Below, in pieces: positions 12,263-15,200 of a DNA stretch of 35,892 nucleotides. Positions within the stretch are counted from its first letter, which is position 1; every line of letters starts with the position of its first letter. This DNA is from an uncultured Clostridia bacterium (GTDB taxonomy: Bacteria > Bacillota > Clostridia > TANB77 > CAG-508), in the NCBI GenBank assembly GCA_944392635.1, contig CALXXH010000002.1, positions 1 through 35,892 of the forward strand. The letters are read 5' to 3'. The notes under the pieces are model-generated. The model saw only the letters and a list, made by a program, of their open reading frames with translations, had not been told where the DNA came from and made no database searches. The position numbers and the translations under genes were made by a program.

Positions 12263-15200
12263 TTACATTTTTGTATCCAAAACTTTTTTCTTGATAAAAT
12301 AAACACCTGTTGCTATTATCATAATACCTGAAAGTATTAATGTTGTATATCCAAATATTGCACCTGTTCTAATACTTACAATTACATCTGCATTACTTGA
12401 ATCATTATTACTATTTGAATCTGCTACACCTGTTTCATTAAAGCTTTCTGCTATTTTTGCAATATTTGTATATGTTCCTGTAGTATTTGCTGACATACTC
12501 TTTGTTAGAGTTAAAGTAACTGATTTACTTTCTCCTGCAGATATTTTTTCATTTGATAAAGATATATTATATAAGTTATCACCTGTTTGATACCAATCTT
12601 TATTTAGTTCTGAATTAAATGTTAAACCATCTGGTAACTGGTCTACTAATCTTCTTGCATATGCTTCTACTTCTCCTACATTTGTTACTCTTATTTCATA
12701 TTCAATAACCAAATTTGTACTATTAACTCTTCTTGCATCTATTTCTACTCTTCCAAGATTTGTATCATTATTATATGTTACTACATCTGTTCCACTTGAA
12801 CTTTGTGTGATTATTCTTTTTACATATTTATCTATTTTTAAGTCTGCTTCATCAAGTTCTATTAAACCAATATTTATATTTGCCATACTTCTATCAGTAA
12901 TTTCTATTGTATCTGTTACAGCATATGTTTTTTCAGTTCCGTTAATATTCATTGTTCTAGAAATAACATCTGAATTTTCACTATCATTTACTCCACTCTT
13001 TTGATATGGTGATAAAGAATATCTACTTGTGTCATATTCAAATATTACTATATAATTTCCATTCTCTAAATCTGTAAAGCTATATTCTCCTACACTTCCT
13101 GTTGTTACAACTAAATTATTGCCATTTGCATCTTTTACAAGTTCATTTGTTGCAACATTTAATAACATTACATTCATATCAGAAAATCTTTCTTCTGCTT
13201 GTTGCATTCTTCCATCTTCATTTTGATCAAGCCATGCATAACCTCTTATTGTATATCCGTTTTGTGGATTATTTGGATTATCTGGGTTATTTGGATCTTC
13301 TGAATTTGTTCTAGATGCTTCAACTGTATGCATTACTTGTGCTTCTTTATATAATTCTCCATTTAATAATATTTGTACTTTATTAATAATATCTACATCT
13401 TCTGTCCTTGTATCTGAATAATTAACAACTGTTCTTATTACTATTTCCTTAGTTTCTCCTTGAGCAATATTTGTATATATACTTAAATCATTTCCATCAA
13501 ATTCAATACTTTCACCATTTTCTTGCACATCTAGTATAGTTAATTCATTTGAAATAGCATCATGAACAACTAAGTGTCCTACATCTATTTTTCCAACATT
13601 TGTTAGTTGGATTTTATATTCAATTATATCATCTGTCTTTACATATCCACCTTCATTTGTTGTTGTTAAACTCAAGTCTATTTCAGCTTTATATGCATCT
13701 CTATAAAATACATTTGACCTTGTTTGATTTTGTGCTTCATCTACTAAAACAACTGACATAGGTATAGATGCTATATCTTCATCAAAATTTCCTATTGAAA
13801 ACATTGCTACTAATGTTATTTCTTCTTGTGGCTGTATAGATTCGATTACAATATTTTCTTCAATGTTTAGTTCATCTTCACCTATATAAGCTCTCATTAA
13901 TTGCATATATTCTGGTATATTTAAATTAACACTTATATTATTTTGCACTTTATCTGTAATATTTTTTATTCCTATGAAATATTTTGCAGATGTACCATTT
14001 TGATACATTGTACTTGGATCATCTACAGATTTAATATATACTTGCAAACCGTTTTCTTCTATCGATATTGAAACTTCTTCTGTTTCATCTGTATCTTCTC
14101 CATATTGAATTTTTGCTTTTACATTAACATTTTGTGCTACATTAACTGCTCTTAAAAAGATATCTATTTCTTTAGTTTCTCCTATTCCAATAGAATCTAT
14201 TGTACCATTAAAACTTTCATCTTGTAATTCATAATAGAAACCTTCTCCATAAACATATCCTCTATCCTCTACTGGTGTATTTGCATCTTCTCCATCAGTC
14301 ATTGCAGGTTTTTCTTGAACTAACATCATACCTTCTGGTACTTGTGCAGTTACATTAACATCTCTTGCTTCTTCTGTTCCCGTATTTGTTACTTTAACAG
14401 TATATTTAACAACTTCTCCAACTTTTACAGTACTACCTGTATCTAGTGTGTCATTTCCAACTGTTGCTGATAATTCTGTTTCTAAAATTGGTCCTTGTCC
14501 TGTTGTTAATGTTACATCTGTAGCTTTTACGCTATTACTTATATTTGTTGTATTACTTGTATAAATTACACTATATCCTTCTGTCGCTTCTTGGTTATAC
14601 TCTAAATCTGCTGGTACTGATACAGTATATGATGTATTTATTACTGTTGCTTGTGGCATTTGGTCTATTACTAATAAATATTTTCTAGGTTGTGCTATAT
14701 TTGTAAAATCCTCTATCCATCCATTTTCTGCATTATCAAGATTTTCATCTGCATTTTCATTTTCAGTATAGTAAACTCTAGCATCTGTTCCTTCAACTGA
14801 AACTGGACTTACAATATTAGCATTTAAATTATTTTCATTACCATTTGTAGGAATTTTTCCTAAAATTCTAACATTATTTACATCTTCTTTGCTATTAATA
14901 ATTTCTGATTTTATTTCTACTTGTTTTTCATCTGTATGTCTTTCAAGAGAAGCTTCCAAATTTTCTTCTTCACCATATGCCTCTATTCCCATTGATTCTA
15001 CTTTATTAATTGCAATCATATCTCTTGGTGATACTATATTTATTCCAGATCTCATTTCAATTGTATCATTATCACCTTGATTACTAACTTGTGCTATAAT
15101 TTCTCTACTTGCATTAGTTGCTTTTTTATTTAAAGTTACATTAACTTTAAAATTAATTTCTGCTCCTTGAACTGCTTGTTCTTTATATGTTGTTTGTTGT

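Follow-up and report, generated by a model that had tools for sequence, protein, structure and literature searches.

A proline-less C-terminal motif as a candidate sortase-type sorting signal on large adhesin-like proteins of uncultured gut Clostridia

We analysed a stretch of 35,892 nucleotides (hereafter the window; G+C content 28%) from contig CALXXH010000002.1 of an uncultured Clostridia bacterium (assembly GCA_944392635.1; GTDB lineage Bacteria; Bacillota; Clostridia; TANB77; CAG-508). The window contains three tandem pairs of very large genes, A1-B1, A2-B2 and A3-B3, all of which lie on the minus strand. The A proteins carry a C-terminal tail in which a pentapeptide with a strictly conserved Thr-Gly (T-G) pair, SIRTG in A1 and A2, is followed directly by a hydrophobic segment and then by basic residues. 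From the sequence of this tail and of its relatives, we favour its reading as a sortase-type sorting signal, namely a variant of the Clostridioides difficile-type SPKTG motif that lacks the proline, and we put the probability of this reading at about 0.55.

If the tail is such a signal, A2 would be exported via Sec through its N-terminal signal peptide and would be retained in the membrane by its C-terminal hydrophobic segment and Lys-rich tail. A sortase encoded elsewhere in the genome, probably class-B-like and of the kind of C. difficile SrtB, would then cut between T and G and pass the Thr carboxyl group to a peptidoglycan precursor. The product of these steps, which we infer, would be a stalk of about 1400 residues, composed of isopeptide-type immunoglobulin-like (Ig-like) domains (CLIPPER, SdrD_B), which is bound covalently to the cell wall right at its last domain.

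The C-terminal tail of the A proteins

The final 37 residues of A2 are encoded at window positions 12266-12376. Read on the minus strand, they comprise the pentapeptide SIRTG (12362..12376), a candidate sortase recognition site whose presumed scissile bond lies between T and G, the hydrophobic segment AIFGYTTLILSGIMIIATGVYFI (12293..12361), a predicted helix of 23 uncharged residues that begins right behind the G, and the basic tail KKKVLDTKM (12266..12292), with the stop codon at 12263-12265. The end of A1 is built in the same way: its SIRTG (20575-20589, minus strand) precedes 32 residues, GAIMISAIVVIILALIGIGIVIYRKKAKKGDI, which are made up of the hydrophobic segment GAIMISAIVVIILALIGIGIVIY and the tail RKKAKKGDI. 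Both proteins therefore have 32 residues after the G of SIRTG, within the distance of about 30-40 residues that is found in sorting signals. As read from the sequence, the N-termini of A1, A2, B1 and B2 resemble signal peptides: an n-region rich in K precedes a hydrophobic core and an A-x-A-like site. The tripartite layout of motif, hydrophobic segment and basic tail, which a first-pass annotation of this DNA had pointed out, is present in A1 and A2. Together with the signal peptide, the T-G pentapeptide, the run of 23 hydrophobic residues and the tail of K/R argue for a sortase substrate.

The same annotation had listed C-termini for all three A proteins. Those of A1 and A2 were confirmed, and A3 indeed has the pentapeptide SISTG (3321-3335), as part of a signal (3240..3335, minus strand) that continues with a hydrophobic segment and KLKFN. 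KLKFN, however, is not the true C-terminus in the window, because no stop codon follows it and the reading passes in frame through a B-type signal peptide, IGKISKLGVSIMLFVLVGMFTCGNAFA, to the body of B3 and past the left window end. The fusion of A3 and B3 (window 3150-3340) is topologically viable, as an out-to-in transmembrane segment is followed by a short basic cytoplasmic loop and an in-to-out signal peptide.

With the C-terminal 330 residues of A2 as query, 67 proteins were retrieved, nearly all of them metagenome fragments, and all complete C-termini among them have x-x-x-T-G right before the hydrophobic segment. When one genome was scanned for each species, 345 relatives were found, from which 79 loci were kept. 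These loci all belong to uncultured gut Clostridia or to metagenome-assembled genomes named "Clostridium sp." (from human, rabbit, chicken and mouse; e.g. Clostridium sp. CAG:343), and in all of them a hydrophobic segment and a basic tail follow the A motif. For the A family, 150 distinct homologous C-termini were collected, which were picked by the upstream strand and an LNKDW motif and not by T-G. Positions 4 and 5 of the motif are T and G in the same register in 150/150 of these sequences, with an entropy of 0 at both residues, and the entropy climbs to 2.4-2.9 bits from the residue immediately after the G. This jump places the boundary of conservation at the presumed scissile bond, and both the invariance of T-G and the position of the boundary support the sortase reading.

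The consensus of the A motif is [S/G]-[I/V/L]-[K/R]-T-G. Position 1 is S in 113 of the 150 sequences, G in 27, T in 4, N in 3, A in 2 and L in 1; position 2 is always aliphatic (I 117, V 21, L 12); and K (76) and R (57) prevail at position 3, with S in 13, N in 2 and G and Q in 1 each. The motif is far from chance and highly non-random. The first-pass annotation had tied its idea of a sorting signal to homologues that keep S-I-x-T-G, and the homologues keep T-G throughout and the first three positions mostly within the consensus, which does not refute the idea. Its remark that positions 1-3 depart from the known motifs holds for position 2, where Pro occurs only in rare divergent members. Two such relatives, with NPATG (P0058) and GPSTG (P0151), have the Pro in the same register; Ile and Pro therefore interchange at this position during evolution, and these textbook-like variants are a further argument for the sortase reading.

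Relation to known sorting signals and to the partner protein B

C. difficile SrtB cleaves SPKTG, PPKTG, SPSTG and SPQTG between T and G, and transfer to meso-diaminopimelic acid is possible (PMC4155245, PMC4371152). The (S/P)PXTG signals of C. difficile and the A tails are both tripartite, both occur in low-GC Clostridia, and both have S at position 1 (113/150 in A, with G in 27), K at position 3 and T-G. They differ in that I, V or L replaces Pro at position 2 and in that the hydrophobic segment of the A proteins begins right after the G. Pro to Ile at position 2 is the difference that sets SIKTG and SIRTG apart from SPKTG, and for SIKTG this amounts to a single residue. TPSTG, a motif of the partner protein B, is likewise one residue away from SPSTG, and the closeness of both motifs to sequences that SrtB cleaves favours the sortase reading.

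Aliphatic residues at position 2 are found in two further systems. NVQTG has been proposed as the sorting motif of C. difficile CbpA (cited in PMC4155245), where, as in the A proteins, an aliphatic position 2 and x-T-G stand at the end of a Cna-like adhesin of a clostridial organism. CbpA has N instead of S or G at position 1, and it is one protein of one species, whereas the A family comprises more than 150 variants. In Streptococcus pyogenes, the FCT pilin motifs (E/Q/V)(V/P)PTG are processed by the class B sortase Spy0129 (PMC3019223). A class B sortase thus accepts Val at position 2 and has its cleavage site at T-G, which makes an aliphatic residue at this position in A easier to reconcile with sortase recognition. 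These pilins have Pro at position 3, whereas A has K or R in 133/150; they are small, whereas the A proteins have about 1450-1700 residues; and their sortase is encoded within the pilus operon, whereas none was found near A and B. The first-pass statement that the A tail matches no sortase motif class was right about position 2 and overstated otherwise, since SIKTG and SIRTG come close to SPKTG and since NVQTG and EVPTG also have an aliphatic position 2.

The canonical LPXTG anchor (TIGR01167/PF00746) has T-G, the hydrophobic segment, the basic tail and the distance to the C-terminus in common with A, and differs in having L-P at positions 1-2 instead of [S/G]-[I/V/L]. The isolated C-terminal fragment of A1 passes the TIGR01167 cutoff (18.1 bits, cutoff 15.9), which is consistent with a sorting signal; the match covers model positions 5-33 only, i.e. 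the G, the hydrophobic segment and the tail. No NCBIfam sorting-domain model covers the A motif itself, and TIGR03063 (srtB_target) scored 7.5 bits. In the literature that we searched, SIRTG, SIKTG, SVKTG, GIRTG and GIKTG are nowhere named as a motif, and no paper links TANB77 with sortase.

The tripartite layout is common to other C-terminal sorting systems as well, and T-G-G, which occurs in about 45% of the A proteins, could recall processing of the rhombosortase (GlyGly-CTERM), exosortase or archaeosortase type. We consider such a route highly improbable, because the second G is not conserved, because the scores of Loki-CTERM (score/cutoff 15.2/19.9), PEF-CTERM (12.5/23) and PTPA-CTERM (12.4/29) stayed far under their cutoffs, and because clustering of all locus open reading frames (ORFs) yielded no conserved candidate processing enzyme beside the loci. 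Heimdall-CTERM was sub-threshold, too.

The B proteins, which the first-pass annotation had not connected with the A tails, provide a comparison within the same operon. In nearly every one of 84 related loci, a B gene lies downstream of an A gene at a distance of a few bases, and B ends in a near-canonical TPxTG motif. Among 71 distinct B sequences, position 1 is mostly T (55), I (11) or V (3), position 2 is Pro in 62 (S in 4), and position 3 is mostly S (28), A (19), P (16) or N (6), followed by T-G. Departures from T-G occur only in B proteins, namely LPPFG (L002/L003) and TPPSG (L067). In the window, B1 has TPPTG (16982-16996, minus strand) followed by TNT, a hydrophobic segment and KKKGLGNGAKNS, and B2 has TPPTG (7859-7873, minus strand) followed by LSTD, a hydrophobic segment and KKYVIKKD. 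TPSTG, TPATG and TPPTG fit the C. difficile SrtB class except that T replaces S.

Ahead of the motif, the two proteins show their hydrophobic pattern in register (A-D-V-I-L-S-I-K-T-G in A, A-E-T-V-I-V-T-P-S-T-G in B). A BLASTP comparison of the A and B C-termini gave a weak similarity (E = 1e-4) in the CLIPPER strand, and the putative homology of the two tails is based on register and pattern, without a significant alignment. The presence of [T/I]PxTG in the partner after the same strand pattern nevertheless argues for the sortase reading of A, and B is presumably anchored by the same pathway. The spacing after the G differs: the hydrophobic segment starts 0-2 residues on in A, whereas in B it is usually preceded by a polar spacer of about 8 residues, and then followed by KKK.

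The two motif classes could also point to two activities. [S/G]-[I/V/L]-[K/R]-T-G might be the motif, partly embedded in the last beta-strand of an isopeptide domain, of an undescribed, Pro-independent sortase specificity that is distinct from the activity that recognizes [T/I]PxTG. We regard this as rather unlikely. If it were true, the two motifs would have different fates, so that, for example, A would be ligated onto B in a two-component covalent fibre, or the two proteins would be linked to different wall acceptors.

The terminal domain and the case for a membrane anchor

The A proteins have three matches to DUF11, now named CLIPPER in Pfam, together with SdrD_B (Pfam/NCBIfam), and the B proteins have SdrD_B, SpaA-like and CarboxypepD_reg-like domains. 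A2 scored 60.7 bits with PF01345 (cutoff 24.6) and 64.6 bits with TIGR01451 (cutoff 24), and A1 gave similar results. CLIPPER is a CnaA-like isopeptide domain that is common in fibrillar-adhesin stalks (PMC12617251). The A proteins share their domains with such CLIPPER/SdrD_B stalks, a likeness that concerns the passenger only: the anchors at the ends of other CLIPPER proteins are of the LPXTG, OmpA-like or type IX secretion system kind (PMC12617251 and our search for relatives), unlike the A motif. A profile search of cluster representatives, whose profile included the SdrD_B region, had giant repeat proteins as its top matches and also recovered A-type representatives, and the distant relatives from this profile end in LPXTG or LAXTG signals. 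Passenger domains that are typical of sortase substrates, and distant relatives with LPXTG or LAXTG, are in line with a sortase-type signal on A.

An AlphaFold2 model of the last 330 residues of A2, computed from a 45-sequence alignment, reached a mean predicted local distance difference test (pLDDT) score of 92.1 and a predicted template modelling score of 0.76. Its last beta-strand comprises residues 286-296 (SSNADVIVSIR), T297 is coil, and a helix extends from G298 to the end, with a local pLDDT of about 79. The model thus agrees, at moderate local confidence, with the earlier suggestion that the motif continues the last strand of the terminal DUF11/CLIPPER domain without a linker. Among PDB structures, Foldseek matched the model best to SdrD B domains and to pilins that are assembled by sortases (BcpA, SpaD, SpaA and EbpB). 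Within the terminal CLIPPER domain (330-residue fragment, window ~12263-13255), no variation occurs at D205 and N264 and hardly any at K143; the three are spaced such that Lys and Asn could form an isopeptide bond with Asp as the catalyst, on the pattern of the solved CLIPPER structure.

This architecture also suits a different explanation, in which the A tail is a permanent, uncleaved C-terminal transmembrane anchor, T-G marks the junction of strand and helix (an N-cap or hinge), and the residue at position 2 belongs to the strand core. Several observations weigh against cleavage by a sortase and lend this explanation some weight. S-I-R lies within the last strand of a probably isopeptide-stabilized domain in the model, with T297 as sole linker residue, and may hence be poorly accessible, and the hydrophobic segment of A directly adjoins the motif, without the spacer that is usual in B. 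The entire upstream strand is strongly conserved beyond the pentapeptide (e.g. D in 121/150 at -8 and I in 121/150 at -6), so that the aliphatic residue at position 2, and even T-G, could be conserved for structural reasons. Sortase signals have Pro, or Ala in class E, at position 2, and A has neither. Peptides with NVQTG, the nearest precedent without Pro, were left uncleaved by recombinant SrtB in vitro in two independent studies (PMC4155245, PMC4371152), which renders the status of NVQTG as a sortase signal doubtful. The A2 fragment remained under the TIGR01167 cutoff of 15.9 bits with 14.4 bits, as did B1 with 14.2; no sorting-domain model matched the full-length A and B proteins, and PF00746 gave no match. 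In the data examined here, moreover, the motif was seen on this single protein family and on no unrelated passengers.

The genomic neighbourhood adds to these points. Pfam searches of the other window genes found no sortase, and none was detected within 10 kb of the A and B genes in about 1.4 Mb from 84-87 related loci, which were searched by a TLxTC regular expression and by phmmer (--max) with Staphylococcus aureus SrtA and SrtB sequences as queries.

Other features of the tail are harder to explain by a mere anchor. Zero entropy at T and G across 150 sequences, while other positions vary, is the signature of a catalytic recognition site and not of a hinge; NPATG and GPSTG look like sortase motifs in the same register; the corresponding position of the operon partner is taken by [T/I]PxTG; and sorting signals likewise have this distance to the C-terminus and a K/R tail. 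We regard an uncleaved anchor as the main rival reading, possible though less credible than a Pro-less sorting signal.

Covalent assembly offers another solution. A dedicated sortase could join the Thr of A to a lysine of B, or of another A, in a pilus-like manner, and only B would then be linked to the wall via TPxTG. The strict pairing of A and B, in this order, in bicistronic units that have a terminator only behind B, the two motif classes in one operon and the Foldseek matches to major pilins could be understood in this way. So could the position of the motif flush with the last Ig-like domain: in the structure of Spy0128, a pilin with EVPTG that a class B sortase ligates, the motif directly follows the last Ig-like isopeptide domain. 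B, however, likewise lacks a linker. Pilus operons nearly always carry their own sortase gene, unlike the 84 loci, and A and B, with 1200-1800 residues, are far above pilin size. No pilin-motif lysine came to light, although no search was aimed at one. We therefore deem pilus-like ligation distinctly improbable.

The A-B loci and their significance

The A and B genes of the window appear to form bicistronic units. A1 (20476..25281, minus strand; 1601 aa), a paralogue of A2, is followed by B1 (16865..20455, minus strand; 1196 aa), and A2 (12263..16609, minus strand; 1448 aa), which encodes the signal peptide, the three DUF11/CLIPPER matches, SdrD_B and the sorting-signal-like tail, is followed after a gap of 18 nt by B2 (7754..12244, minus strand; 1496 aa); both B genes are putatively co-transcribed with the A gene upstream. 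Terminator-like hairpins in the window stand only directly after B1 (16791..16813, minus strand), where the A1-B1 unit is closed, and directly after B2 (7723..7745, minus strand), and the best promoter-like site (25308..25336, minus strand; 11/12 matches, a consensus match only) is located upstream of A1, which together argue for A and B as bicistronic units. The stems of the two hairpins are nearly identical in sequence (ACGGGC.TA...ATGCCCGT), which suggests that the entire A-B unit was duplicated together with its terminator. B3 and B2 share a 1.3-kb stretch with 93.7% DNA identity (window 1-1305 versus 9690-10970), far above the rest of the paralogues (the C-terminal regions of A1 and A2, for comparison, are 66% identical), and this suggests a recent gene conversion or duplication between B copies.

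The third pair, A3 and B3 (3-7521, minus strand), extends past the left window end. The N-terminus of A3, with its signal peptide, is encoded by a separate ORF (6994-7521) in another frame, which overlaps the main A3 frame that opens at 7049. A frameshift near 7020-7049 would account for the split, and A3 may be a pseudogene or contain a sequence indel error. The combination of a frameshift with the in-frame fusion to B3 could reflect real decay or fusion, a small deletion, or an assembly error.

The other genes of the window comprise minC, a PBP2-type transpeptidase gene, mreD, mreC, mreB, radC, a PDDEXK_2 gene, mecA and an M23 peptidase gene. Most related loci that extend far enough show the recurring order mreBCD, PBP2, minC, two small ORFs, (A-B)n and spoIIE, with SpoIIE present in 17 of the related loci (TIGR02865, E = 3.5e-119). 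Clustering of the locus ORFs returned only mreBCD, PBP2, minC, the two small ORFs, SpoIIE and two further proteins, one a repeat protein of 511 aa and the other of 359 aa. The (A-B)n array, set between mreBCD-PBP2-minC and spoIIE, points to a lineage that forms spores and keeps these adhesin genes at a conserved chromosomal site. The two small conserved ORFs (window 25523-26412, plus strand) encode 161 and 134 aa, the second with a hydrophobic C-terminus, and have no Pfam or NCBIfam match; in 39-49 related loci, their equivalents separate minC from the first A gene and are likewise read from the opposite strand. In and around window 26413-27063, neither minD nor minE follows minC.

If the A tail is cleaved, the recognition range of sortases would be widened to Pro-less motifs with an aliphatic residue at position 2, for which more than 150 natural variants would be at hand. 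Such a finding would bear on the status of NVQTG in C. difficile CbpA and would be of relevance to sortase engineering, where it could supply new ligation tags. It would also mean that LPXTG models miss proteins of this type, and that genome annotation undercounts the surface-anchored adhesins of these abundant uncultured gut bacteria. If, on the other hand, the tail is not cleaved, x-T-G with a hydrophobic segment and a basic tail would by itself be insufficient to identify a sortase substrate. In either case, the conserved A-B adhesin pairs beside mreBCD-pbp2-minC are likely major surface structures of this gut lineage.

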